Shown here: positions 27,361 through 55,053 of the stretch, one piece after another
How the letters are laid out: every line of letters begins with the position of its first letter
How positions within the stretch are numbered: position 1 is the first letter of the stretch
From: Dictyostelium discoideum
Taxonomy: Eukaryota
Assembly (NCBI GenBank): GCA_000004695.1
Contig: CM000151.3
Location: 5,600,001-5,664,000 of the forward strand
Length of the DNA: 64,000 nucleotides
Reading direction: 5' to 3'
Position numbers and translations under genes: made by a program
The notes under the pieces: model-generated
What the model saw: only the letters and a program-made list of their open reading frames with translations
The model's database searches: none
What the model was told of the DNA's origin: nothing

Positions 27361-30300
27361 TGATTTTGTTAAATCAAACCATTGTCTAAGTGTATCACTA
27401 AGAATTGAAGGAATATTATTTAATGATCTAAGAATAACATAATACATGAATGGGAATTCTGACATATAGTTTGTACGTTGAATTTTACCATTGTTGAAAG
27501 AAATAGACTAATAAAATTATTATAAAAAAAAAAAAAGATTAGTAATTTATTTTTAATTTTTTTTTTTCTTTTTTTTTTTTTAAAATATAAATTTTAAAAA
27601 ATAACTTACTTCAAAATCTAAAATACTATTATTATTAACTGGATTATCAATAACAATGAAAACAATGAAAACATTTTTAATAGAAGCTTCACGGAGATAT
27701 TTCTTTGTAGTTTCTGGATCACGTAAACTCCAACCATCGGAAACAATGAAAACCAATTGCATAGCTGGTTCACCAGAACTTGATTGTTTGTTCATATCCA
27801 TAATTTGGAGAGTTTTTGAAAGGAAGTTAACCATATTGGTTTTAGTTTGTTGGAATTTAAATTGTGTGATAATTTCAGGACCAGTTTGATCAGAGAAAAC
27901 TTGATCGAATGAATGAACCAATTGAACATCTTCACCAAATCTAACGATACCTAATTGACCAACTTCAAGACGTGACATTGCTCTTGAAATCATAGTCATA
28001 GCTTCCAATGCGAAACCACCACTATGATAGGCAGCCATTGATTCAGTATCATCGATTGCTAATAAAACTTGATATTGTCTCTTATTTGGTTTAGTACGTC
28101 TTAACCAGATCTTATCTTTCTTGAATTGGGAGGCAATGTATGGAATAACCTTCTTCATATTGATTCTTTTACCAGATTTGTAATCACCTTGTAATTTAGT
28201 TGCCAAAGTTGGTTCAAGGATAAGTCTTAATTGTTCACAAAGATCTTGAGAAAGGTCATTGGTGAGTTGTTCATATTTCTTCCATAACTCAGTACCAATC
28301 TCTGGATTACTAGAATTTTCAATTTTGTATTGCTCCAATTCTTGTCTCATTCTATCTAAATCTTCACGAGTTAGTTTCTTTTCTTCGACAGATTCTTCAT
28401 CATCTTGATCACCATCTTGTTCCATTTCTTGATCATCACCATCATCTAAAACTGCTTTTTCTTTATCAAGATTTGTAAGATTTTCTAATTGTTCCTTTGT
28501 GAATTGTTCTTTTTGATTTAAACCATCCAATTCATCATCTTGACCATCTTGTTGATCTTTTTCAAGTTTTTCTTTTTCTTTTTCTTTTTGTTGTTTCAAT
28601 TGATCTTGTTTCAATTTTGACATTGAAATCTTTTTATTTTCATCAAGTTGTTGTTTAGAATCATCTTGATGTTCAACCTCTTGTTTATGATCAACATCCA
28701 TATCATCCTCCTCATCGATATCCATTTGATCCTCTTCTTGTTCTGCTTGATCATCTTGGGCTTTATTTTGTGGAATATCTTGTAATTGAGTATCGGTGGC
28801 AGCGGCTAAAGCTTGATCGGTTTCTTCATCTTTATCAAGTTTTTCATCATCTTTAATGAATTCATAATCTTGATTTTCATTTTCTTTGGCGTTTGGATCT
28901 TGTTTTGGTGCTTTTTCTTTTGGTTCAGATGATTGTTCTTCCTCTTCTTCCTCTTGTTCTTGTTTAAGATTTAAACGTTTCTTCCACTCTTTATTTGCAT
29001 CACCCATTGATCTATATGGATTTGGATCTACTTGTTTTTGTTTCTTTGGTGGTTGTTGAGCACTTGATTGTGGTGGTGGTTGAGATTTAAGATTTTTAAG
29101 AGCACCTGTATCATTTTCGGATGGAGTTGGTTGAGTCATACCACTATCGTCATCAGCATTATCTTGATTGGATTCATCTTTCATCTCTTCATCAGTGTTT
29201 GAAACATTTGATTTACTACCAGTTTTATCTTTAACACCCAATGGTTGCTCTGAATCTTTTGGTGTTTCATCTTGTTGTTCATTTGTAGTTAGTGATGTTT
29301 GATCCTCTTCTGGTTGTTCTTTCTCTGGTTCGTCACCTTCAGGATTGATTGAATCAACATTTGATGGATCAATTGGTTGATTTTCTTTATCTTCTTTATC
29401 TTCATCTTCATCACCATCCTCTTTTTCTTCATCTTCTTTCTCTTCGTCACCATCTTGATCAGATTCCTCCTTTTCATCACCATCCAATTCTTTCTTTTTC
29501 TCTTCTTCTTTACTAACATCATCACCATCCATTTCATCCAAAGGATCTTTGAAATCGTCACCACCATCTTGTTGTTCATCATCTTCCTTACCTTCATCTG
29601 GATCTTCTAATTCTAAATCCTCAGGAATTTCCATTTGATCATCACCTCTTGGGTCACCATGATTTTCTTCTTTCTCTTGTTCTTGGTTGATAACATCATC
29701 CTCATTCTCTTCTTGACCGAAATCATCTTCATCACTTGCACCATCGTCAGCATTTTTATTATCATCTTTACCATCTTCCTCTTCATCATCTTTACCTTCT
29801 TCACCCTCTTCATTTTCATCTGGTTTACCATTTTCTTCTTTCTTTTTCTTTTTATCATCTTTCTTATCGTCATCTTTCTTATCGTCATCATTATCATCTT
29901 TACCATCTTGTTTGGCCATCATTTCTTCACTATTGGTTTCATCACCTTTACCTTCTTCATCTTGTTCTTCTTCATCTTGAACATCTTGTTCATCCCAAAG
30001 TTTTTCATCGACGACATTATCTTCTGGTTTTTCAAGGTCACCCATTTCTTTATCATTTTCTTTCTCATTGTTTGGATCATCTTTCTTATCTTCATCTTTA
30101 TTTTCATCTTTTTTAATATCGTGCATTTCACCCTCAAAGTCATCTTGCATATCGAAACCTTCATCTTCATCTTTCTCCTCCTTTTCTTCATCTTCATCTT
30201 CATCCTTTTCTTCCTTCTTTTGAGTGTTTGTATCTTCGATTTGACCTTGATCTTCAAGTTGATCACTAACATCCTTTTTACCTTTACCTTCACCCATACC

Positions 30301-33300
30301 AGTACCTTCAACATCATCTTCGAAATTTGATCTACCACCTTCACCACCTTCACCATCATCGCCACCATCGGCAGGTTTACAGAAACCTTTAGAGTAGAGT
30401 TGAATGAAAACACCAGTTGAAATGTATTCAAGTTTACAACATGTCTTATGATAAGATAAACTATCAACAATCGATTGATTTACAATTAACATGAATTGAG
30501 CTAATAATGGACCCATTTGTTTAATCATTTGTCTATAGATTGATAATGTTGAAACACTACCACCACCATCGACAATGATATTATGAAGTTTAACGAATTG
30601 TTCCAATAATTTTGATAATCTTAATGATTGAACTTGATGATCAATAAATTCACTTAATTTTGAAATACTACCATCTTCAATGGTATATTCTCTAACTTTT
30701 TCTAATTCTTGATCTAATTCTTCTTGTTCTTTATTATAAGCAATGATTTGATTTGATTGAATTTTCAAATCTTGAATTGAAATTAAAATTTGATCAATTA
30801 AAATACCAAATTGATTTGTAAATTCTTTAATATTATTTTGATTTTCAATATCATTATCATTAATTTCATTACCAACTAATTCTTCATATTCTGAATTAAA
30901 TTTATTAATTAATGAATCAATCTGTGAAAAAAAAAAAAAAATTAGTAAATTATTATTAATTATTATTATTTTTTTTTTTTAATACATTACATTATTAATT
31001 AAAATTTGAATTGGTGATTTAATATAATTAATATTTGATAATTTTGATAATAATAATTGATTTAATTTCTCTTTAATTTCTTTAAATTTAGTGAAAATTG
31101 AAATGATTAAATTAATTGTTGACCAAGTCATCATTGGATATTGATTATTAAGGAAAGAGAAGAGATTACGTAATTTAGATTGATGTTTATCAATTTCCGA
31201 TTTAATTGATTCAATGATAATTTGAATCGAACAAATTTCAGGAATAATAGTTGAAATCATACCACCACTAACAGCTGAAGTTGTTTTTCTACAAAGTAAT
31301 AAGATTTCTTTGATAGCTTGATTGAATTGATTTATTGATTCTCTTTGGATTTCAAACCATTTACTTAACATATTATGATTATTAAATATTTGTTCATCGA
31401 TTTCACTATTGCTACCACCACTACCACTAATATTTGTAAATAACTCAGTGAATAAAGTTAAATGATTCCAAGAATTAATTGAATCAATTAAATTATTTCT
31501 TTGATTAATAATTATTGATAAAAAGTGTTCAACATAACCATTAATTCTTTGAACATGTTTACTTGAGAGATCAGAATTATATTCAATTGATAATTGACGT
31601 AATCTATGAACTCTTGAAACGATACGATAATAGTATTGATCGGCTTGATCTAATAATTTAGCACCATTATCAGCGGTAATTTTAGAGAAGGAAGTTGGTA
31701 AATAACCTTGATTATCGGAAATGGTTGGTAAATGTCTAACATTGAAAAGATAAGAGATTTGTAATTGTTCTTGTGGATAACGATTGATATGATATGAAAG
31801 ACCCATCTCGTGGAATTTTGACATTAATTCTTTCAAAGCAAATTCTTTCTCTTGTCTCTTTATTTTTTCATCTGATGATAATTCTTTCAATCTATCAATG
31901 ATTTCAATTGAAAGATCATTGATGATATCAACACCATCTCTAACAACTTTCCAACTATCGGATTCTAAAAGATTCTCTTTACAAATTTGAATCATTCTCT
32001 TTGAAAGTAATGAAAGTTTATTTTGTGCCAATTTTTCATTTTCAATTTGGAATAGTTTCTTTAATAATGGTGATTCAATTTCAATTGGTTTTGAAATTGA
32101 ATCAATTGATTTTCTATCGATTGAATAATTACTTGGAGAGAATGATAACCAATCATTGAAATTTTCAATTGCTAATGATTTCTTTTGAATTTGTTTTTTG
32201 TTAAGTTTTTGATTCTTTTTTAATTTATCTTCTAAAATTGTAGCAGCACCAGAATGTAATACCAATGGTGGAATATCTAATTCATTTTCAATTTGAGTGA
32301 AAATATCATGTAATGGTTGAGCTAATACATTCTTATATTTAATGGTTACTTTTGCTAAATTTCTATGAGATACTTCAATATGTTGTTTTAAACGTTCATA
32401 TTGAGTTAACAATCTATTATCATCCCATCTTGAGAGTCTAATGAATTCTAAAGCTTTATCTTCGATTGGTTTAATTGATTTTGCTAAACGATCTTCAAAT
32501 CTTGAAATGAAATTCTCGAAATATTTGAAAATATTATAAATAATATCTGAAAGTTTTTGTTTATAATTTGTATTTTTAGAGGTACCAATTAATTTAATTG
32601 TTGAATTTAATTGTTTGTAGAAAGATTTCAATAATTCAATACGAGTGAGGAAATCACCTAAACTTGAAGAATAGAGATATTGTTGAAGTGTATGGAAATT
32701 CTTTGATAGATTTTCATCCTCCAATTCTGGTGATGATGGTTCATCATTAATTAAATCATAAAGAATGAACCAAGATTTCAATGCTTTTACCTCTGCTTCT
32801 TTCTCTTGTGATTGGAAAATTGATGGCCATGATTCAATTTCTAATTTTCTCCAACGTACAATTAATGAAGAAATTTCATTCAAATGATTTTGAATTGATA
32901 CTGCTTTACTTGCAAATGATTCCCATTCTAAAGATTTACGTAAGAGTAATTCTAAACCAGTTAAAATCTTTGCTAATGGATCAGTTGCTGGATAGGTCAT
33001 TAAACGATCAATTAATTTAACCATAAGGGTAAGATTTGCTTGTTCAGGATATTCAACCAATAATTCGAATACTCTCTTTCTAAATGAAATTAATGGTTCA
33101 CGAATAATTCCAATTTCAGAGATATTTGAATCACGATAAATGTTGTAGGTCTTCTTTTGGTGAATTACATCCACGACTTGATTATCACCATCATCATCAT
33201 TGATACCTTTAGATTTCTTGTAGAGATAAGAACTTGTTTTTAAGAATCTAAACTTTTCATCCAATTTACTATAGGTAATTAATGATGGTGGACGAATTGA

Positions 33301-36300
33301 GAGTGTTTCTTTAAGATTTGATGCAGATAAAATATGTGAACCCAATGATAATTGATCGAATTCCATATCACCTGATCTTTGATTTAAAATTTTCATTAAA
33401 AGGTAACTACTTGAATAAAACAATTGGAATAATTCAGATCTGTCTCTATCACTAAGTGTCCATTGTTGTTGTTCTTTTGGAATTGGAATACCATCTAAAT
33501 GTTTAAAGATATCCCTATGAATTGAGCATAATTGTAAAATCTCTTCATTATTAATTGATGATTTGAAAAACATTGAACCATCTTCTGATGTTAAAACATT
33601 TGATTCATTATTCTCTTTATCTTTGTTTTCTTCATCATTATCATCATCAATTTGATTCTCAACAACATTTGCAACTTCTAAATCTTCAAAATCTTTATAG
33701 AAATTTGGGAATGAAGTTAAGAAAACTTTTTCATCCTTTTCTTCCTTAGTTTCCATCTTATGAGTTTGAACTTTATATTTAAATTCTTGGTTCTCTAATT
33801 CTTCTTTCTTTCTTTTCTCTTCTTCTTGGAATCTCCATTCTTGAACAAAGATTCTAAATATTGAATCGATAGCTTCTAAATTATCAACATCTAAATAATT
33901 TGAATTTGAAAGTTGACTATAAATTTGACAAAGTGATGAACGTAATAATAATCCAATTACTTTAAAGTTTTGTAAACCACCATTACAATTATCTTGATTA
34001 GTTCTTTGATTAAATTTCATCATATCTTTAATTGAATCTAATGTTAATTTATCTAATAATATATTATTTGATGTGGTGTTGGTGGTGGTAGTAGCGGTAG
34101 TAGTAGTAGAAGTTGTAGTTATTTTAGAATTTATATCAACACTATTAATTCTTGGGAATTGAGTTAATGATAATAAAACTTTTTGAATTTGTTTTGTTAT
34201 ACCCTGATTACCACCTAATTTATTATCTTGAACTTTTTGTTTAAATGAAACTGACATCATTCTTAAACCAGATTTCATTTGATAAACAGCAGTAATAATT
34301 GGTACAATAATATCACGATATCTTGAATAGAATTTCTTTTCACAAGATTGAATGAAATGATTTGCTTTCTCTTGCCACATTTGTTCAGTTGATAATATCA
34401 TTTGATTGTATGATGAATTTGCAGAAGTGTTATTTTCTTGTTGTTGTTGATTATCACCTCCTTCTGATTCAACTTCTAAATTAAATTCATTTTTAACTTG
34501 AGATAAATCTAATTTTGAAATTAAGTCAATGATTTTTTCAATATTTGAAAAATGATTTGAAAATTGTGAAACATCACGATATAACTCTTCAAATTGTGAT
34601 GGAATTGGACGAAGTGTAATCTTTTTAGAATCTAATGCTAATTTCTGATCGATTGATTGTTTCTTTTGTACCAATTCATCAATTACTAAACTTGTACCAT
34701 CTTTACCAGTATATTGTTTTTCAATAATTGTTCTAATTTCAATTTCATCTTGTAATTGTTTTGAATGTTCTTTAGAGTATTGTAAAATAACATCATACTT
34801 TTGAGTTGGATCGATTGAACCTGATGGAACAAACATAATTAATCTAAATGTATTCAATAATAATTGAAGTCTACCAAATGTTGATTGTAATTTTAATTCA
34901 TCTTTATATAATACTTTATCATCTAAACATAATAAAATATCAAGACATGGTAATAAAAGTTGTTTTGATTTTTCATTAAATGATTTATCATTTGATTGAA
35001 TTATTAATTCTTTAATATTTTCAATTAATTCATCAAAACCTATATCTAATATTTCCAAGGATGACGATGATGATAATAAATGTTCACCAATTAAAGCAAC
35101 ATTTGACAAAAGTTGATGTTTTTTATGTTCATCATTATTAAATGATTTATAGAAACTTGTAATTGTTGATAATAATAAAGCTATTGTTTGTTTAATTTGA
35201 TATTCAAAAGATTCAATATTTGAAACATTTGAAGAACCATCAGCACTTGTTAAATGTTGAATGATTTGATTCAATTGTTCAATCTTGACTGGTACATCAG
35301 CAATACTAACATATTCCCAATCACATGTAAGATAGAAAGAGAATACAGTTTGAATATTTTGGAATAAACGTGGTGGACCATATCCAAATCTAATTGAATC
35401 ATAAATATTAACTTTACTACTACCATTATCGAGTGAAGCTGCGGCATCATTCTTTGATAATCTATATTTGTATTGTGGTAATGAATATTTACCAACATGT
35501 GAAATATCATTGAATGCATTATTCCATTGACTTGAATTATAAACATAAAGAATTGAATGAATAACTGATTGGAGTTCAATTATACCAATAGAAGCTTGTT
35601 CTTGCTCTTGTCCTTGTTCATCTTTTTCTTGGTTAGTTGTAACTTTTTCTAAATAATTATCAATCATCCAAATTAATTTTTGATAAAATGCTAAATGATA
35701 TAATGATCTTGGTATAGTTGATGATTTATATTTGTTTACGATATATTTTAATTCATCAATTATTGATTCAAATATGGTAATGATTGATTGATTCATTTTA
35801 CCATTTTCAATATCCATATGTTGTAACATTAATAATTTAACCAATTCAGAGATTACAAAAGTTTCTTTCAAATGAAGTGAATGATCAATTAATGGAGAGA
35901 TTGAAATGACTTGATGTTTAATTGATAATGGATCGAAATGAATTGATGTTGCATCACTAATCATAGAGTCATTTGAAATATCACTATTATCAAAATTTGT
36001 TGAAACTGGATTAAATGTTGAATTTAATTCAAATTGTTTTTGTTTTTCAATTAATTGTTTTAATTTATCGGATAAAGTTTGTGGTACCAATTCTAAGTTT
36101 GTAAGGAATTCACTAACACGATCCAACTCTTGTTGTTGTTGTTCTTGATTTTGATTATCAGAATTTAATTGATAATTTGCCCAATATAAAGTTGAAATTG
36201 CTTCAATTAAAGTTTTCTTCCAATCTTCATCGATTGCATAACTAGAATGTTTAATTGGTGATTCATTCTTGTTGAAATTGTATTGAACCTTTTCAAGAAT

Positions 36301-39300
36301 ACTAAGGAATTGACTATCCAATTGAACCAAATGATTTGATTTCATTACCATTGGATAACCACCAACTTTCCATAAACGATTATTTGAATTATCATTATTA
36401 TATTGATTTAATCCACTTGAGATCTTATCAATTAAAACTTGTAAACCAGTATTAATTAATAATGGTGATTCTGATTTTGATGTTAATGTTGTTAACTTAT
36501 TAATCTCTTTATAAATCCATCTCCAACGAATTATAAATTCACCCAAATTAAATTGATTTGATGGTAAATTAAATGTTGAATTCCAGAAATTATTTTTTAA
36601 TAAAATTAATTGATTAATAATTTGAATAGTTGAAAAAGTTGATTGTTGTTGCTCTGATGATGATAATTGAATTAACCATTGATCAATTTGTTCATCTAAT
36701 GATTTGAAAAGACGATAAATCATTGAAATAATATCTTGATGTGGTAATAAATCTTTACTCATCATTTTCTTTGTATAAGCTAATGATAATAAAATTACAG
36801 GTATTGATTTAATTGATTTAACTGAAAGTTGTTGACTTGCATTACCTTGTTGAACTTGTTTTAAGAATTTATTATATTCTTTCTCTTGTTTTGAACTTTG
36901 AATGAATAATGATAATAAAGATTTAATAATTTCCATATCATTTAATAAAACTTGATTAAATAAATCTTTAATTGGAATCATTGATTCAGAGCCGCCTGCT
37001 TCTTTAGTAATATAATTATCAACTTTTTCTTTAATTAATAAAAATAATGAATCATTATTTTTCCATTGATGACCTTGATAAATTAATAATTGTTTTGAAT
37101 CAATGAATGATAAATTAATCATTGATAGTAATTGTTCTAATCTTTTTTCAAAATCTTTATAACATGTATGATTGAATAATTGTTTCATACATGATATTAA
37201 TGTTGTTAATAATTGATTAATTGGTGAATCTTTTTCATTTTGATCCTTTAATGAATTTAAATATAAAACATAATTTTCATATTGTGATGAATTAATATTT
37301 TCAATTAGGAATTTTGCTGAAATCTTATAATTTGATTCATCTTGTTGTTGTTGTTGTGATGATGATGATGAAGATGATGATAAAGAATTCATTAATCTCT
37401 TTAAATAATATTCAAAGAATTGATAATTCATTTTCATTGTTGTTGAAATTGAATCAGTAACATAATCTTTACCTTTGATAAAGTGTGGATATATACCTAA
37501 AACTGTTTGATCTTCACATAGGATTGATTTGATTGCAGATTCATTGAAAATTGAATTAAAGATATTTGTAACCAATTGACGTTGAGTTAAATGTCTACGT
37601 GGACGAATGTAAATTTGTTCCATTGAATTACGAATTGAATTTAATAGTGAAAAACCTCTTTGTAATTGATCAAGTATTAATTTACCCCAATATAATAATT
37701 GTGAGAGTGTACATGGATTTTCAATTGTTGATGAAAGTTGAGTGAAAATTTGATTATGGAAATCAATCATTGTACGAGTTAAACTTTCCAATGGAATACC
37801 TAATGCAGTTAACAATTGTTGATTATCAAAATTATTTGATGGAGTTTCCATCAATGATAATTGGTCGGCTGCCATATAAATTTCAATACCACGATTTCTC
37901 ATAGCACGTGAAATCTCACCTTTTTTATCATCCATAGTTAAAAAGATACGGAAATTTGGATGTGGTTTAACAACTTTAACTTGACCATCAACCATACCAC
38001 GTTCGTTTAACATTAAAACACCGTCTTGTTCCAATAATGGATTCAAACGATCCAATACTGTTGGATTACAGAAATTAACATTATCAATTAATATCCATGC
38101 ACCAGTTTCCAATGCTTTAATTAATAAACCATCAATCCATTCAAAACAACCTGTAACACTTTCTTTTTCAATTGATTTAATACGTTGAATTTGTTGTCTA
38201 ACATCTTGAATTCTATTTAAATGCTCTTGATTATTATCTAAATTAAATTGAATTGATAATTTCTCCAATGCATCAACAATTGTTGATAAAAGATCCAATT
38301 GTTCAATTGTAATTAAACCAACACCACCACTACCAATGGTTGCACCATCTTGTTGAATTTGTTGTTGAGTTTGTTGAGTTTGTTTTTTAAATAAATTCCA
38401 AACTTGATGAATATCTTGAATTGATGAAATACAAGTTTTCATTAAATTATCATCATTTGAGTTAAAGTAAGTCATAATATGAGATGATACAATTGTGATT
38501 AATGATGATACTGATGATATGATACGTTTTTGATAACGTACTAAATCAATTTGTTCAAAACCACCTAAAATCTCTGTTGTATCAACTGATGAATTCATAG
38601 AGAATTCATAGAGTGTATTACCAGTTAATTGAGCTAATAAACGAATGGATGAAGTTTTTGAAGTTGATGTTGGACCAATTAAAATACTCATCCAATTCAT
38701 TTCAATACATTTCATAATATTCTCTAATGGATTTAATAAACGTTGAAGTAATTGAATATTTGATGAATTATCTAGTACACTACTATCAAATGATGATGCA
38801 CCACCATTTTGGACTCTTGGTAAAATTGATGAACCAATTTGTAAATATTCTGGTGAAATTGAGTAATGTGGTTGTTTATCGTAATTACAAATTGTTGGCA
38901 TCATATCAATAGATTGATCATTTTCATCACCACTGGTGGTGAAAACTCTTTTAAAAATTGTTAAAACATGTTCACGATCTTGAAGTGTTCTCATTCTTTG
39001 AAGATAGATTAAGTCAATGAATCTGGCAGGATTTGAAATTGATGTTGGATCTTTAACTATTAAATCACACCATCTAAAAGTATCACGAAGATTGAATTCC
39101 CATGGTGCACCTTTACGTGCAAATTTATGTTCAATCATTGATTCTTTAAACATTTGATGATTAAATTCAATCATACGTTCAATGGTTTTTGATGGTATAG
39201 TTGGATACATTGCTGTACTGATGAATAGAAGATCTTGTTGATTCAATTGGTCAATGAATACTTGAGTGAAACGATTAAGGAATGACTTTGGTAACCCTTT

Positions 39301-42300
39301 ACGACCACCACCTTGATGAAGTGGATTTTGGCAAGCGAAAACACGGAAATTTGGATGACATGCAAATGTTTTACCCAATTCTGGAATGTAAACTTCTGAA
39401 CGATGATCTAAACAAGAATTTAAACCCTCCAAAACGGTTTGTGATGCAAGATTTAATTCATCCAATAATACCCAACTACCATTACGTAATGCCTCTAAGA
39501 AAACACCATCTCTCCATTCAAATTGACCACCTGTACCACCTTCAACTGGTAAATCACTACCTAAAAGATCCATAATATCAGTTTGCTCTGAAAGATTAAT
39601 ACGAACGATTTGATTTCCCGATGCATTTGCAATAGCTGTAATCAATGAAGTTTTACCAACACCTGGTGAACCTTCCACTAAAATAGCACGTGGTAATTGC
39701 ATACCTCTAAGAACACGTTGTGCATTCTTACTAGTTGTTGGTGCTGATAAACTAAATTGAATCTTTGGTACATTTGATTCACGTACTGGAATATAAAATG
39801 GATGAATACCAAATCTATTCTCTTCTTTAATAATATTAGCAATTGATGATGACAATGATGATGATGATGATGATGTTGATAATAATTCTGTTTGTAATTT
39901 TAATTTCTCATCTTGTGATTCAATTTGATCAATTAAACGAATTAAACATGCCTCACGTAATTTTAAACCTTCACTTTCAGATGAAGAATTTGAACCCATA
40001 CCAAAACCATCTAATAATACTAAACAAGCACCATGAATATAAGATTCATTTGGTGAGAGTAATTGTTTATCCATACATAAATTCATAAAACTAATCCAAG
40101 ATAGAATATCACGTAAACTAATTACACGTTTATTCTTTTGAATCATTAATAGATATTCGATAAAGTTTAACATTAAACTACCTTTACCCTTTAATTGAGG
40201 ACTTGTGAATCTTTCTTCAATAATTTGTAATAAATCTTGATGACTACTAATTGCAGGTACCCAAATCTCAGTGAAACGATTTCTCATAGCTGGTGAAAGT
40301 TCTTTCTTACCAAAATCACCACCTGGATTCATTGTTGCTAAAATTCTAAACTCTTTATGACCTCTTAATTCTTCGATTTCGACACCACCTTTTTCAGCCA
40401 ATACTAATAATCTACTTGGTTCTAAAACTGAATTTAATCTTTCTAAAACTGCATCCTCTGCTAATGAAATTTCATCAATTAAGAAATAATCACCTTGCTT
40501 CATTGCTTCAACCAATGGGCCATCAACCCAATTAAATAATGAACAATAGGAACTATAAGTTTTATCGATTTCAATAGCTAATTGTTTCAATTGTTCAGTT
40601 AATAATGATGAATTTGAAACTTGTTTCCATGACTCAACAATTAATCTCTCCATAATCTCTTTAATTGGTAATTCATCGATGTTGTTATTCTCTTGTTCAA
40701 GTTTATATAGATTTAATTGAGATAATTGATTAAAATATTGTTTAACTAATGAATATAATTTTGATAAAACTTGATCACGACCTCTAACTGGACGCAAACC
40801 ACCAATGAAATCAGCAGTTTCAGTATGTTGATGACAATTGAGTATATGAAGTTTTTGTTTATTTAAAATTGAATATAATTGACAAATTGTAGTTTTAGAA
40901 CAACCAGTTTCACCAACTAATAAAATTGGTTCTTTATGTTCCAAACATTTACCAACCAAACTAAACAAACGTTTCATTGATCTTGTCCAAACGATTTTCT
41001 CTAAATGATTTGATTTTGATAATTCTGAATCATTCTCACTTAATAATTGTAAAAGTTTTAAAAACTCTGGTTTATCATCACATGAATAGATAGATTCGAT
41101 ATCTAATTTAATCTTTAAATGTTTTTCAATCACTTGTTTAATTATTAATTTCTCTTCATCTTTTCTTAAACGTTCAGCCAAGAGTTGGTAACCTGCAATA
41201 CCCAATTCTTCATAGGATGAAGGTTGACGTTCTGCCCAACGGAACAAATCACGGAATGTGATTGCACCATGTTTACCTGCGAAAACTTGGTTACTACCTT
41301 GTCTATTCAATTGAAGTTCTTTCATAATTAATACTAATTTCTTGCAATAGGATGGTGGTAATGCGCAACGTTTACAAAGAATCTCTTCAAGTTCATCCTC
41401 TGGAATATCGTCTACGTGTAATTCTAAGAAACGATTTCTAAAAGCACGTGATAACACTTTTCTACCACCATAAAGACCTGGTGGATTTTGAGTTGCGAAT
41501 AACATAAAGTGTGGATGTGGTCTAACGACTTCTTGAGTCTCTGGAATGAAAAGCTCTCTATTGTCATCCAATAGACGATTTAATGCCTCCAATACTTCAG
41601 ATGGTGCTAAATTCAACTCGTCCAATACTACCCAATAACCTTTACGTACTGCTTCCACTAAAATACCCTCTTGGAATACAAGTTTACCCTTATCATCACT
41701 TATATATTGACCAAGATATTCTTGAAGATCGGTATGTTCATGATTATTGATACGAATGAATCTATGACCAGTTCTAATTGCTAAATATTCAACCATTGAA
41801 GTTTTACCACTACTAGTTGGACCTTGTAAAAGTATTGGATGTTTACGTGATACCAATACTCTTGCAATATTTGAAAGATTAGATTTAATACTTGGTGTTA
41901 AAATATAATGAGTTGGTATAATTGGTTTCTCATTACCACATTCAATCCAAAACTGTTCAATTTTTACATAACTCTCTTCTGCGTTATTATTATTATTATT
42001 TGTTGTTGATGTTGGTGGTGGTCTATTTAATGGTTGATTATAAAGTTTAACTTCACCTTTTTTTATATATTGTTTAATTAATTGTTCCATCATTGGATAA
42101 GATGATTTATTTAATTGAGTAAGGAAACTCATACTTATACCTTCGAAAAGTGCACGTTGGAAACCAAATGATTTTGTAACATGTTTTGTATAATTCAATG
42201 CACGACTAAGTGTACGTAATGAAAAGATTGGTTTTTGATTTGACCCATCCAACATCTTATTTTGAGCGTCTTGTTTAGTTTTTAAATAAAATTCAACGAT

Positions 42301-42757
42301 ATCTTCAATTGGTGGATTTGGTACTAAATTTGATAAAACTGTTTTCACTACTAAACATAAATCACCCCTATTATCCAAATCATCGACATAGTACTCTGTG
42401 AATCTATTACGAATACCAGGTGGAAGATCCTTTTTACCAATATCAGTTGGAGGATTCATACATGCGAAAACCTTAAAATTTGGATGTCTTTCAACTGGTT
42501 CAACTTCACCTTTCTCTGTTAAAGTAATTGAACCACCATCGAATAAACCACTTAAACTCTCTAAAGTTTCTGAAGTTGCTAAATTCATTTCATCTAATAA
42601 TACCCAATAACCTTTACGAATACAATTTACTAATGAACCTTCAACAAAACTAAATGCAAAATTATTTTTTGATTTTTCAAATTGAATTGTTAATTTCTTT
42701 ATATCATTTGATAATTTTATCCATTTTTCTTTAACTTCACTTCTAATTGTACGTTTC

Positions 42758-42813
<56 letters not shown>

Positions 42814-45103
42814 TTCTTTTGTATTATTTGTTGTTGTTTGATCATCTTTTAAAACTTTATTTTCAACTAATTTAATTGCTTTATTTAATAAAGCAATGAA
42901 TTGTTTCCAATTTTTAGAGATGAAAGCTTTATCAATTTTCTCTAAGAAATCAGTATTATTTGATTCAGAGAAAGTCTTTTTAAACATTGAATCGAATCTA
43001 TTCTTTAGAGGTAAACAAAGTAAACGCATTTCTACTGGTTTAAAACCACCAATTAAATCTGAACTATCTGATTGTTGATTAAGATTCAATACTACCAACT
43101 TTTGATTTAATTGGTCGGCAATGTATTGAACTACCGATGTTTTACCAGTACCAGTTTCACCAACTAATAAAATTGGTTCATTAAATTGAATTGAGATTGA
43201 GATCTTTTCCATTAATCTCAATGAATTCATTGTGTGTGCAAAAACATTACCATGTTTAGTTACACCGGAATCTTGTTGACTTTGTTCAGTTGTGAATCTT
43301 GTATGTTTTTTACCATTTGAAATTTGAATTGAATCAGATTTCTCTAATGATTTTAATTTTGCACGACCTGTTGAAACTGATTCTTGGGTGATTATAATAG
43401 ATGGTTTATAAAGTTCAACATAGTAATTGATACGATCACCAGTTAATTCCCAAACTCTACCAATAACTTGAGTCAATTGTTTTCTTAAATTCTTTTTACT
43501 AATCATTGAACAAAAACAATCTAAAGCTTCAACAAAAACAATCTCTTGCATTGTTGATGTTATAATTTGTTGTGAAACATTTGTTAAATGTAATCTTTGA
43601 TTACAACGTCTAATCCACTTTATTAAATCTCTTGATGATATAAATCTACTTGATGGTATTATAAATTTCTCATTACTATTATTATTATTATTATTATCTG
43701 TATTATTATTGTTGTTTATATTATTTACATTTGCAGTATTTGCAATATTTGCAATACCAGCAACTTCATCAGTTGGTGATATTGAGATTGATTGATTTGA
43801 AATTACACGTAATAATAAATTAAAAGTTTCAATGAATTTTGAAATCATAACTGTTAATTGTGGGAATAGAGTTAATAAAACTTGTTTCATTTCAGTTGGT
43901 GATAAAGCTTCAATTACAACTCTAGTCCAAAGATGTGAGAGAATATTTGCATTTTGATCACGACTATGCGATCCAAACAAAGTTTGTGTTGCAAATAATT
44001 GGAAACCATTGGATGCTTCAATCACTTCGCCACGACCTGGTATGAATAAAGTTCTATTCTCTAATAATGGTATTAACACTGACAACACTTCAATTGGTGC
44101 TAAATCAATATCCTCAATTAAAATCCATCTACCTTCTTGAACGGCTTGTGTGAGTGCACCAGCTTGCCATTTAAATTCACCCGGTGTATCAGAGGTGATA
44201 TAAGTACCTAACAATACCTTTGAATCGGTTTGATCACCTAAATGAATTCTAATTATATTATCATTACCAGTGATTCTTGATAATTCTTCAATCATTGTTG
44301 TCTTACCAGAACCTGTAACACCCTCAATTAAAATTGGTTTACCTAAACCAACTGCAATTGCCAATGAATTTAAATTTTGTGATACAGTATTTGTATAAAC
44401 TAATTTTTGTACTTGTTCATCTTCCCCTTCTCCCTCTTGTTGTTGTTCTCCTCCTTTTTTTGATTTTACACTTGAACCATGTCCAATTTGTTCAAACTTT
44501 TTAAATAATAAAATACCACAAACATCAACAATTGATTTATGTAAATCTTGTTTTTGTATAAAAATATTTGGATATTTATTAATTAATTCTTCATCTTCTT
44601 TTTCTTCTTCTTGATTATTATTTATATTTTCTTTTTTATTGTTATTGTTATTATTATTATTTAAAAATAATTTTGATGATTCTAAATTTAATAATTCAGA
44701 CTCAATTTGAATAATTTGATTATGGTATTGTTTAAATAATGGTTTAATTTGAGTGATTTGATGATCAGGTACATTTAATACCATTGACATTGATTTAATG
44801 ACATACCATGTTATACGTTGACTTTTAATCTCTAATAATGAGAATAATGGTGTCCAATCCCATAATGATGAGAATAAACTTTTATTAAATGATAATAATC
44901 TAAAACAACTTTGAACTAATCCTAACCATCTCTCTTCTTTTTCTTCAGTAAAGTTTTTACATTGATTTATACTATCAAAAATATTTATACTATTATTACT
45001 ATTTTGGTGTTTTTTATAAAATTCAATTACAAGACTAAATAATAATAAATAAATAATAAATAATAATAAAAAAAAAAAAAAAAAAAAGAGGGTTAGAATA
45101 TAA

Positions 45104-53319: not shown

Positions 53320-55053
53320 ATGCTCAATAATTATATTCACAAATTAGTTTATATTTTTTTTTTTTTTTTTGTTTCATTGAAAGTTTCATATTGTAATTTG
53401 CATTATTTAGGATTAGATTGGAATCAAAATGTTGGAGGTAAATGGATTTGTGTTGATAAAAATTCACAACCTAATATCAAAGATTTTTTTTATAAATATA
53501 ATGGTGGTTTTCATAAGTATATTTATAAAACTTATAATTTTTCATATCCCAATAAACCAACAGGAAATGGTGTATATGTTTATTTTTCCCAAAATGGTGA
53601 AATAGCCTATATAGGAAAATCGTGGCAGAAAAAATTTAACGGGATTTATGATAGGATTGCAGCCCATCAAAATAAAGATTTGTTTGGCCAACCAAAAAAT
53701 AAAGATGAAATTCTAAAAGAAATAAATGGTTTACTTTCACATGATGAGATTCAAAATATTGAAAAAAGAGAGAAAATTACTAAATATTGTTACCTACCAA
53801 TTCCCAATAACTCTCCAAGAGAATTAGCATATTATATAGAAGGTAGTTTACTCTCAATTTTCCATTCTTCTATTAATTCTTGGCAAAACGGAGGCCCTTC
53901 TGGTGATACGGGTATTTTTAATCGTTTTAGAATTCCAATAATAAGATATACCACAAATGAATATTCTATGTTGTATACTGCAAATGATGAAAATGTTAAT
54001 AATTACTATTCTGTATTTGAGAATCCGGACTTTTATAAAATTTTTTATTACTTCAAGAATTATCAAAAAGTAGAAGATGATTTGGAAAATTGTGAACAAG
54101 AATTAAAAATAAATAAAAATGAATTGAAACGAGAAATTTCGTCAATCCAAAAATTTTTGAAATCCACCAATTTGGAGGATGCATTCCATAATTTTAGAAT
54201 TGGATATATAAAGGGTCACTCGAAAAACAGTAATCAAGCAGTACCAGGGGTTACTTTTACTAATATGCTGTCAGCTCTGTTTTATAATGTTAATTTGTTG
54301 CCAAAGTCTAATGAAAATGTTGAAATGCTTATTAAAATTTTAGAAAAAGTACAAAATGATGGAAATAAAAATAAAGCTAATGAAGTTTTTTGTCCTCAGG
54401 AAAAATCTTTAAATTATAAAATTCAAACTTTAGAAAAGAACAATGAAGATGCTAGAATAGTAAATAATCAACTTAATTCGACGATTAATTCAAATGAAAT
54501 AAAAAACAAAGACATAATTTCAAAACAAGAAAATGAAATTATTACTTTAAAAATTGAAAATCAAAAATTAAAAAGTAACATTACTCTATTATATGGTGAA
54601 ATTTCAATTTTAGAAAAACAATTAAATGGTAACATTACTCAATTAAATGGTGCAATATCAATTTTAGAAAAACAATTAAATGGTAACATTACCTTATTAA
54701 ATGAAGAAATTTCATCATTGAACTCAATAATTACTGATTATGAAAGAAATAATACAATTTTGACTCATCAAGCAGAGCTTGATTCATTTGAATTAAAATC
54801 ATATGATCAATGTATTATTGATAGAAATAGATACAAAATGGAATCAGAAAAATCACCATTTAATTTAAAACAATACCCATCGTTGGTTAAAATTGATGAT
54901 GTTTCACAATGTCCAAAATATAAATGCTTAAAAAGAAAATCATTAAATGAGTGGACTATTGGACTAAACATCCCAGCTTTTTGTAGAGAAAGTCGATATG
55001 ATTGTTCGTTGTGTTACAAATACATAGAATGCAGTTTTTCTGATGAATTTTAA
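53320..55053 (+). CDS. GIY-YIG (URI-type) nuclease-motif protein of 577 aa with an N-terminal hydrophobic segment, a central coiled-coil containing a 13-residue tandem repeat, and a Cys-rich C-terminus.
   Basis: GNGVYVYFSQNGEIAYIGKSWQKKFNGIYDRIAAHQN contains GVY ... (9 aa) ... YIG ... R..AHQN. This is the GIY-YIG core with the R-x-x-x-H-[QN] element seen in SLX1/UvrC-type domains. The N-terminus (LVYIFFFFFVSLKVSYC) is a signal peptide or TM anchor. ISILEKQLNGNIT(Q/L)LNG is repeated. The C-terminal 90 aa hold 9 Cys (CPKYKC...FCRESRYDCSLCYKYIEC). Confidence 0.6.
   Translation: MLNNYIHKLVYIFFFFFVSLKVSYCNLHYLGLDWNQNVGGKWICVDKNSQPNIKDFFYKYNGGFHKYIYKTYNFSYPNKPTGNGVYVYFSQNGEIAYIGKSWQKKFNGIYDRIAAHQNKDLFGQPKNKDEILKEINGLLSHDEIQNIEKREKITKYCYLPIPNNSPRELAYYIEGSLLSIFHSSINSWQNGGPSGDTGIFNRFRIPIIRYTTNEYSMLYTANDENVNNYYSVFENPDFYKIFYYFKNYQKVEDDLENCEQELKINKNELKREISSIQKFLKSTNLEDAFHNFRIGYIKGHSKNSNQAVPGVTFTNMLSALFYNVNLLPKSNENVEMLIKILEKVQNDGNKNKANEVFCPQEKSLNYKIQTLEKNNEDARIVNNQLNSTINSNEIKNKDIISKQENEIITLKIENQKLKSNITLLYGEISILEKQLNGNITQLNGAISILEKQLNGNITLLNEEISSLNSIITDYERNNTILTHQAELDSFELKSYDQCIIDRNRYKMESEKSPFNLKQYPSLVKIDDVSQCPKYKCLKRKSLNEWTIGLNIPAFCRESRYDCSLCYKYIECSFSDEF

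Follow-up and report, generated by a model that had tools for sequence, protein, structure and literature searches.

GIY-YIG nucleases occur in DNA repair (UvrC and SLX1), as homing endonucleases and restriction enzymes, in retroelements and among bacterial toxins. In plants, the GIY-YIG protein GRXS16 resides in the plastid and is controlled by a disulfide bond that links its two domains (PMC5890173). The Tox-URI1 proteins are exported bacterial toxin nucleases of the GIY-YIG/URI type, carried on long fibrous stalks, in which Y, YxG, R, E and N are conserved (PMC3482391). No description of a secreted eukaryotic GIY-YIG nuclease was found in the literature searched. Here we analysed a 64-kb stretch of Dictyostelium discoideum DNA (the window), in which the open reading frame at 53320..55053 on the + strand is a single exon with an ATG start and encodes 577 amino acids followed by a stop. 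This frame is identical to D. discoideum AX4 DDB_G0275783 (XP_643463.1; Q553N0), an uncharacterised protein restricted to the D. discoideum complex, of which no literature mention was found. UniRef names Q553N0 "GIY-YIG domain-containing protein"; the label was in UniProt/UniRef beforehand and is not new.

DDB_G0275783 resembles the N-terminal domain of UvrC/Cho (PF01541; PDB 1YCZ and 1YD6) in the pattern GVY-x-[FY]-x3-G-x-[IV]-x-Y-[IV]-G-K-[AS], in the Arg of helix 1 and, by manual alignment, in an E-x11-N spacing identical to that of E76/N88 in T. maritima UvrC. It differs from UvrC in being eukaryotic, in having a predicted signal peptide, in lacking the UvrB-binding, Endo V-like and (HhH)2 domains, in carrying five extra residues between YIG and the Arg and a variable insert of ~30 helical residues before beta3, and in scoring under the family cutoff. 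With Arabidopsis GRXS16 (PDB 2LWF) it shares the likeness of a eukaryotic GIY-YIG domain outside the nucleus and cytosol, as predicted here, fused to an unrelated C-terminal module. GRXS16, however, is plastidial and carries a glutaredoxin, whereas DDB_G0275783 has a coiled coil and a Cys-rich tail together with a secretory-looking signal. SLX1 likewise combines an N-terminal GIY-YIG domain with a Cys-containing C-terminus, but the tail of DDB_G0275783 is without the C4HC3 ligand pattern, ~300 residues of helix and coiled coil lie in between and a signal peptide is predicted; known SLX1 structures are also not the closest to its GIY-YIG domain. The order of GIY-YIG domain, linker and Cys-based C-terminal module recurs in I-TevI-type and virophage/polinton GIY-YIG-Zn-ribbon proteins, and the Tyr-Tyr spacing is identical in I-TevI. 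Unlike these, DDB_G0275783 has a predicted signal peptide, lies in no intron, intein or mobile element, and found no match in PHROGs or phage tblastn searches. Tox-URI1 offers a working analogy for an extracellular GIY-YIG nuclease, although the toxin nuclease is C-terminal on RHS/filamentous repeats and accompanied by an immunity gene, whereas the nuclease domain of DDB_G0275783 is N-terminal and eukaryotic. No immunity-like partner was identified for DDB_G0275783, and HMMER against 1.84 billion representatives gave no Tox-URI1 sequence match.

The neighbours of the gene are a myosin-I gene, a ComC-like gene, midasin and an ArfGAP-PH gene, all ordinary cellular genes, and its position is syntenic in 3 other genomes. 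Its flanks showed no mobile-element setting (RT, intron, intein or terminal repeats), and no paralog was found within the window. The preliminary description had held that the architecture matches neither canonical SLX1 nor a transposon frame, and the absent C4HC3 pattern and the ordinary neighbours agree with it. Its suggestion of a lineage-specific protein is likewise in keeping with an exhaustive HMMER search, in which the 1.84 billion representatives yielded Dictyostelium fragments and, beyond the D. discoideum complex, a single weak match to a prokaryotic repeat protein (P0008). The latter is probably spurious as a homolog: its score is made up of five copies of one 24-residue match, and the protein has no GIY-YIG Pfam match. 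A word-indexed search with residues 28-232 returned zero matches, tblastn against 50,697 phage records gave no relevant match, and neither PHROGs nor PADLOC contained a phage or defence GIY-YIG match.

The nuclease-like half of the protein comprises the following features.

53554..53919, + strand: divergent UvrC-like GIY-YIG core, residues 79-200, from profile and structure comparisons
53569..53616, + strand: GIY...YIG hairpin, G84-V-Y86 to Y97-I-G99, from the sequence and hhalign alignments
53653..53667, + strand: R112-I-A-A-H116, the Arg/His pair of helix alpha1, aligned with the Arg conserved in UvrC and I-TevI
53674..53775, + strand: variable helical insert between alpha1 and beta3, residues 119-152, poorly conserved among orthologs
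53839..53877, + strand: E174 to N186, proposed metal-binding Glu and Asn, which we infer from manual alignment
53395..53553, + strand: beta-rich segment ahead of the nuclease domain, residues 26-78, with no family match

The motifs occur in the order G84-V-Y86, 10 residues, Y97-I-G99 and then R112-x3-H116-Q-N. The GVY...YIG core and the R-x-x-x-H-[QN] element of the preliminary description are therefore both present, with a spacer of 10 residues in place of the 9 first counted. Y86 and Y97 are 11 residues apart, the same as Y6/Y17 of I-TevI. GVY and YIG align to the family motifs in hhalign and lie on two adjacent strands in the AF2 model; R112-x3-H116 is invariant in three orthologs, and the loop from YIG to the Arg is 5 residues longer than in UvrC or I-TevI. 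E174 and N186, 12 residues apart as are E76 and N88 of T. maritima UvrC in the manual alignment, are invariant in three orthologs and fall on or just past the predicted helix following beta3. The profile alignments stop before these two residues, and low-stringency hhalign pairs the family Glu with E148 instead of E174; E148 is not conserved. Of the proposed catalytic constellation, Y86, Y97, R112 and H116 are aligned, while E174 and N186 are candidates by spacing with E148 as a rival alignment. All six candidate residues are invariant, lesioned gene copies included.

Pfam PF01541 is the top match for residues 76-215 alone (E 0.0088, 16.8 bits) and matches 2 of the 3 orthologs. The score is below the curated gathering cutoff of 22.6 bits, rises barely, to at most 19.3 bits, after excision of the insert (residues 119-152), and comes entirely from the first ~40 residues of the domain. 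PF01541 was unreported for the full-length protein or an N-terminal fragment (residues 26-240, 215 aa), and as controls neither nine shuffled versions nor the reversed sequence matched it. Each of the three highest NCBIfam matches falls on the GIY-YIG segment of a UvrC/Cho-type model, and hhalign against a UvrC-rich profile of 124 sequences gave P 4.5e-5 with GVY, YIG, R and H aligned. In Foldseek against the PDB, ranks 1-9 are all UvrC GIY-YIG domains (probability 0.96-1.0). Phmmer and profile searches of PDB sequences found no GIY-YIG chain, only noise (CSN8, TetR), and a custom UvrC-dominated HMM was uninformative since its 5 bits were near the level of the best shuffles.

The predicted order is beta1 GVYVYF, beta2 IAYIGK, alpha1 IYDRIAAH, two extra helices, beta3 KYCYLPIP and the helix RELAYYIEGSLLSIFH. 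The beta-beta-alpha-beta-alpha order asked of a structure prediction is thus seen, fitting the fold beyond the motif itself, but in an AF2 model of low confidence, with a mean pLDDT of only 39. These comparisons, weak in their sequence scores, support the assignment of the N-terminal half as a very divergent UvrC-like GIY-YIG domain, and the GIY-YIG call made beforehand is borne out at that level.

The N-terminus carries two features.

53320..53394, + strand: predicted cleavable signal peptide, residues 1-25, from sequence heuristics
53354..53370, + strand: T17 homopolymer (FFFFF run) within the signal-peptide codons, from assembly comparison

As the criterion for a signal peptide we applied an n-region, an h-region of 7-15 residues and a c-region whose residues at -3 and -1 are small. 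The corresponding parts here are MLNNYIHK, LVYIFFFFFVSL (12 aa) and KVSYC, with small residues at -3 and -1 of the predicted cleavage site by inspection. The best 19-residue Kyte-Doolittle window covers residues 9-27 (mean 1.76), and there is no second hydrophobic segment in the protein by this measure. All three orthologs have a Lys-flanked hydrophobic core of 12-13 residues followed by S-x-C, and the S-x-C cleavage-type motif reads KLSNC and KVSNC in two orthologs, lesioned copies included. A transmembrane anchor was rejected because this core is too short and the conserved S-x-C motif suits a signal peptide better. The segment, for which signal peptide and anchor had both been put forward, therefore resembles a signal peptide that is cleaved off rather than a membrane anchor. 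In a second D. discoideum assembly the homopolymer is T16, and the N-terminal frame of its gene model is shifted; this difference could be an assembly error. Enrichment of N-glycosylation sites was also considered and rejected, the 7 sequons being close to chance expectation in an Asn-rich protein.

Downstream of the nuclease-like domain, three further parts can be recognised.

53920..54393, + strand: most constrained part, residues 201-358, predicted helical at low confidence
54394..54783, + strand: continuous helix of ~130 residues, residues 359-488, AF2 pLDDT 70-90
54811..55050, + strand: Cys-rich tail, residues 498-577, with 7 invariant Cys and no His

The middle region gave nothing significant against Pfam, NCBIfam or the PDB. 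The long helix is presumed from the model to be a coiled-coil stalk. It is the only part resolved by AF2 of the C-terminal half, the model giving no fold for the tail (pLDDT about 31). The tail Cys are at positions 498, 531, 536, 555, 562, 565 and 571, spaced C-x32-C-x4-C-x18-C-x6-C-x2-C-x5-C. A Cys-rich tail had been correctly noted, with 9 Cys where 7 are found, but its reading as a degenerate RING/PHD finger as in SLX1 fails: the tail has 7 Cys, one CxxC and no His, the C4HC3 ligand pattern is absent, and searches of the C-terminal region against Pfam (E up to 10), NCBIfam and the PDB gave no family or structure match. The number of Cys in the predicted mature protein is odd, which counts against the main reading given below.

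Selection along the gene is uneven. The GIY-YIG core is under purifying selection on the AX4 branch (dN/dS 0.30, bootstrap interval 0.14-0.66), the segment ahead of it (residues 26-78) is fast-evolving (about 0.9-1.7) and residues 201-360 are the most constrained (0.10-0.29). In both D. cf. discoideum genomes the N-terminal, nuclease half is interrupted by frameshifts or stops that arose independently: one has lost 4 nt, at AX4 53694-53697, and the other has lost 7 nt, at AX4 53516-53522, and has GAA changed to TAA at codon 168, AX4 53821-53823. The branch dN/dS of the GIY core in these sister genomes is compatible with neutrality; in the lesioned L002 lineage it is 0.54-0.92, against 0.19 (0.12-0.27) for the C-terminal part. 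M217 (53968-53970), the sole internal Met ahead of the coil, is conserved, and from about this residue the frame is open for 366-410 codons in both sister genomes. The nuclease half appears to be undergoing loss in the sister lineages, and the gene appears to be non-essential and fast-evolving.

Our tentative reading of the sequence, put forward at somewhat under even confidence, is that DDB_G0275783 is a non-essential, oligomeric DNase of the secretory pathway that is being lost in relatives. The cleavable signal peptide would direct entry into the secretory pathway and leave the nuclease domain at the N-terminal end of the mature protein; the ~130-residue coiled coil that comes next would form a dimer or trimer, and disulfide bonds would most likely form within the C-terminal knob of 7 Cys in a secretory compartment. 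The GIY-YIG domain is probably catalytically competent. Its active site would follow standard one-metal GIY-YIG chemistry, with the Y86/Y97 hairpin, R112 and H116 of helix 1, E174 for the metal, and N186. Oligomerisation would bring together two or more sites that each nick a single strand. The most likely role would be that of an extracellular or endo-lysosomal DNase in a bacteria-eating amoeba. The evidence is computational throughout: it shows the frame, its motif, likeness to GIY-YIG at the level of the fold, a narrow distribution, purifying selection in AX4 and lesions in related genomes, and from these the activity, the Glu/Asn pair, secretion, oligomers, disulfide bonds and the role are inferred. 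If exported and active, the protein would equip a model phagocyte with an additional DNase, extracellular or phagosomal; it would be a compact case of a young gene in which an old catalytic fold is joined to a coiled coil and a Cys-rich knob, and the sister lineages would offer their natural loss-of-function variants for comparison. A more ambitious version, which we regard as unlikely, is that DDB_G0275783 would be the first GIY-YIG nuclease of a eukaryote to act elsewhere than in the cytosol and nucleus. It would be a coiled-coil-oligomerised DNase with a signal peptide, assembled by a bacteria-eating amoebal lineage around a UvrC/Cho-like or toxin-like domain gained from bacteria by horizontal transfer. 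Its targets would be bacterial, phagosomal or extracellular DNA, or it would serve in conflict between strains; some lineages of the D. discoideum complex would have it in active form, and in others it would be inactivated.

The lesions also permit another view, rather unlikely on balance, in which the nuclease domain is a relic in decay, the C-terminal ~360 residues, possibly translated from M217, make up the functional part, and the GIY-YIG half in AX4 has merely not yet been disrupted. The independent N-terminal lesions in both sister genomes fit this view, as do the frame left open from ~M217, the conservation of this only Met preceding the coil, the constraint on the C-terminal part even in the L002 lineage and the 1-nt variation of the T17 run between two D. 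discoideum assemblies. Yet the AX4-branch dN/dS of the core, even at its upper bound, and the retention of catalytic-type residues and the cleavage motif in lesioned copies point the other way, as does an intact 577-codon frame in a genome of 80% A+T; the lesions could, moreover, be very recent and the T-run difference an error of assembly. Were the nuclease half a relic, the locus would be that of an ordinary fast-evolving orphan gene.

That the protein is an intracellular nuclease of the nucleus or mitochondrion, with a tail binding zinc and DNA and a hydrophobic N-terminus that serves as an anchor or presequence or is an artefact of annotation, seems to us quite unlikely. DNA substrates are usually intracellular, a GIY-YIG domain followed by a Cys cluster at the C-terminus is reminiscent of SLX1, I-TevI and the GIY-YIG-Zn-ribbon proteins of virophages and polintons (PMC3671162), and C531-x4-C536 with C562-x2-C565 could make one Cys4 site. 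Against these stand the composition of the tail and its lack of any Pfam, NCBIfam or PDB match, the negative phage and defence searches, the ordinary chromosomal surroundings and the n-h-c layout kept in orthologs. Chance occurrence of the motif in a compositionally biased orphan protein with no GIY-YIG fold is highly improbable. The sub-threshold Pfam score with no match for the full-length query, the low pLDDT, the absence of homologs beyond the species complex and the possibility that AlphaFold recalls the fold from the motif alone would favour it, but the pattern G[IVL]Y-x8-12-Y[IVL]G-x5-16-R-x3-[HY] was absent from 4.2 million residues of composition-matched shuffles and turned up once among the long frames of the window, in DDB_G0275783. 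In addition, shuffled controls gave no GIY-YIG match, the results from three model libraries and from two programs for comparing structures all point to the GIY-YIG/UvrC family, and the predicted secondary structure fits the fold past the motif.

The presumed coiled-coil stalk contains one further feature.

54552..54713, + strand: 54-nt (18-aa) unit, three copies in tandem within the coil, from repeat searches

TRF places the repeat at 54566-54714 (period 54, 2.8 copies, 86% matches). A near-perfect tandem repeat from a recent duplication had been proposed; the repeat is present, but copies 2 and 3 are identical at 47 of 54 nt, short of near-perfect. The duplication is not recent, since both orthologs carry it copy for copy, at dS about 0.4-0.6.

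The 577-aa product of the open reading frame under study was identified by protein search as identical to XP_643463.1 / DDB_G0275783 / UniRef100_Q553N0. UniRef already names Q553N0 a "GIY-YIG domain-containing protein", so this label is prior knowledge; none of the papers found in a literature search mentions the gene. The A+T content of the window is very high. The four features named in the preliminary description (GIY-YIG motif, hydrophobic N-terminus, tandem repeat and Cys-rich tail) were each located in this frame.

53320..55053, + strand: ORF of 577 aa, D. discoideum AX4 chromosome 2
53354-53370, + strand: T17 homopolymer, coding for the FFFFF run of the predicted signal peptide
54552-54713, + strand: tandem repeat of three 54-nt units, from the repeat search

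The motif reads G84-V-Y86, a 10-residue spacer (previously counted as 9), Y97-I-G99 and then R112-I-A-A-H116-Q-N. A relaxed form of the pattern occurs once among the long ORFs of the window, in DDB_G0275783, and not at all in 4.2 million composition-matched shuffled residues. Pfam reported no match for the whole protein or its 215-aa N-terminal fragment (residues 26-240). When residues 76-215 were submitted alone, PF01541 was the best match (E 0.0088, 16.8 bits, profile positions 2-66), under the gathering score of 22.6 bits. The HMM search proposed earlier returned the expected family at the top for the isolated domain, but stayed below threshold and was silent at full length. PF01541 was matched by two of the three orthologs (AX4 and two D. 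cf. discoideum genomes) and by none of the controls (nine shuffles and the reversed sequence). The three best NCBIfam matches, all weak, fall within the GIY-YIG part of the models concerned (UvrC and a DEDD-exonuclease/Cho type). Alignment of the three orthologs by hhalign gave P 0.0025 against six Pfam-validated GIY-YIG domains, and P 4.5e-5 (probability 69%) against a 124-sequence UvrC-rich profile; GVY, YIG, R112 and H116 were paired with the family motifs in both runs. Excision of the variable segment 119-152 brought the Pfam score to only 19.3 bits, indicating that the signal derives almost wholly from the first ~40 residues. Judged on sequence alone, membership in the family is borderline.

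AlphaFold2 modeling of residues 26-240, using an alignment of five Dictyostelium sequences without any GIY-YIG family member, produced a poor model (mean pLDDT 39). Its elements are ordered as strand GVYVYF, strand IAYIGK, helix IYDRIAAH, two helices, strand KYCYLPIP and helix RELAYYIEGSLLSIFH. In a Foldseek search of the PDB with this model, UvrC GIY-YIG domains occupied ranks 1-9 (probability 0.96-1.0) and I-TevI rank 10; phage GIY-YIG proteins were frequent among the top matches in a viral structure library, all non-significant. The predicted structure is stronger support for a GIY-YIG domain than the sequence, and we consider the fold assignment highly probable. The preliminary reading is therefore borne out at the fold level, with a sequence score below the curated family threshold. 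Glu-174 and Asn-186 are invariant across the three orthologs; in the model, Glu-174 lies on the helix after beta3 and Asn-186 just past that helix. Their spacing equals that of Glu-76 and Asn-88 in T. maritima UvrC, and they are the proposed residues that would complete the active site. Low-stringency hhalign instead pairs Glu-148, which is not conserved.

The N-terminus is the sole strongly hydrophobic stretch of the protein. Residues 1-25 have a Lys-flanked hydrophobic core of 12-13 residues and a conserved S-x-C directly before N/K-L-H-Y, the layout of a predicted signal peptide; a membrane span was rejected, as it would need a longer core. Residues 26-78 show neutral evolution and matched no family. 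Within the ORF, the only difference in another D. discoideum assembly is T16 in place of T17, which frameshifts the N-terminus, and its truncated, intron-containing gene model results from the one T fewer. T16 may be an assembly error; the difference reflects either such an error in long-read assembly or a slippage-prone on/off site. At the other end, the last four residues are SDEF in AX4 (55039-55050), FLMN in one D. cf. discoideum locus (L001) and SDEL in the other (L002, 7183-7194). SDEL is an ER-retention-like tetrapeptide, relevant to the location of the protein, and is probably there by chance.

Residues 201-358, helical by prediction, are the most conserved part of the protein. Residues 359-488 form a single long helix in an AlphaFold2 model of the C-terminal half (pLDDT 70-90), within which the 18-residue repeat sits (TRF, 2.8 copies, 86% matches; copies 2 and 3 identical at 47/54 nt). 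A recent duplication had been suggested; both orthologs, however, hold the repeat copy for copy and copy-specific differences are common across species, placing the duplication before ortholog divergence. In each lineage, both copies (54606-54713 in AX4 and its equivalents) carry their own residues (EKQ in AX4, KKQ in L001, KD[HQ] in L002), which may reflect partial gene conversion between the 54-nt copies. The coil repeat period (54394-54783) of 18 residues equals five turns at 3.6 per turn and is not a multiple of 7, and this stretch may therefore form a straight, non-supercoiled helical bundle. The tail is Cys-rich as described, with seven invariant Cys rather than nine and no His, a ligand pattern that excludes the C4HC3 RING/PHD finger proposed by analogy with SLX1. 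It matched no known family or structure and was left unfolded by AlphaFold2.

The full-length protein matched only three Dictyostelium (cf.) discoideum proteins, and residues 28-232, searched exhaustively with HMMER, added no credible homolog. Residues 40-115 gave a weak multi-stretch match (E 3.5e-5) to P0008, a 790-aa protein of a prokaryotic metagenome-assembled genome (L004, 8001-10373) with five repeats GGRWI...AYLGSSWEPRF..LHD, whose gene adjoins a TIR_2 gene and a ClpB-like AAA+ gene. P0008 has no GIY-YIG Pfam match, and neither the first Tyr nor the Arg is present in it; the similarity is probably spurious.

In both D. cf. discoideum genomes the N-terminal half is damaged, in a different way in each: by a 4-nt deletion after codon 124 in one, and in the other by a 7-nt deletion together with a change of GAA to TAA at codon 168. 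The frame stays open from ~M217 on in both. By the Nei-Gojobori method, dN/dS is 0.29-0.43 overall. Branch-specific estimates from three taxa put the GIY-YIG core at 0.30 (0.14-0.66) for AX4 and at 0.92 and 0.54 for the two lineages with lesions; the C-terminal part remains at 0.19 (0.12-0.27) even where the damage is greatest. These branch values and the lesions indicate that selection has acted on the nuclease half along the AX4 branch but that other lineages can do without it; the C-terminal half has proved the more durable of the two. Silent-site divergence is mosaic along the gene (53968-55050 versus L001 and L002). Across residues 361-577, silent sites barely differ between AX4 and L001 (branch dS 0.06 and 0.05) and L002 is far from both (0.61); across residues 217-360, the outlying lineage is AX4 (0.61). 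Such a pattern is suggestive of recombination or introgression between lineages within the species complex.

We tentatively favor a UvrC-like nuclease in which the predicted signal peptide would route the protein, the coiled coil would oligomerize it and the GIY-YIG domain would use one-metal chemistry. Its role would be that of a non-essential DNase, extracellular or endo-lysosomal, which relatives are losing. A less likely reading is that the nuclease half is vestigial and that function resides in the last ~360 residues; the lesions and the intact downstream frame fit it, and the core dN/dS on the AX4 branch and the invariant Glu-174 and Asn-186 speak for a nuclease still in use. Rather improbable is a nuclease acting inside the cell whose tail binds zinc; this reading would draw on the invariant Cys and has the signal-peptide layout against it. 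Chance origin of the motif would suit the sub-threshold Pfam score and sits poorly with the shuffled controls and the Foldseek ranking; we give it very little weight. For the favored secreted DNase, the working principle has precedents, since secreted URI nucleases occur among bacterial toxins (PMC3482391) and plant GRXS16 places a eukaryotic GIY-YIG domain in an organelle (PMC5890173); the architecture itself, unlike the principle, has none. New here are the combination of GIY-YIG domain, predicted signal peptide, coiled coil and Cys-rich tail in a species-complex-restricted gene, and the evidence for ongoing loss of the nuclease half in sister lineages.

The surrounding genes are ordinary cellular ones (myosin-I, a ComC-like protein, midasin and an ArfGAP-PH protein), and mobile-element status of the locus was rejected. 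Directly upstream on the opposite strand lies DDB_G0275785 (50203-52737), an 844-aa orphan with no Pfam family. It is multiplied in the L002 genome, where its copies flank the GIY-YIG gene, marking the locus as structurally dynamic.

L002 2387-4912, 8766-9633 and 10472-12985: DDB_G0275785 copies, two full and one partial inverted

Two neighboring long ORFs on the minus strand (27580-30768 and 30979-44790) are jointly midasin-like (MDN1), one with six AAA_5 domains and midasin lid domains, the other with a C-terminal VWA/MIDAS-type domain; they are presumably a single gene with a short intron between them.
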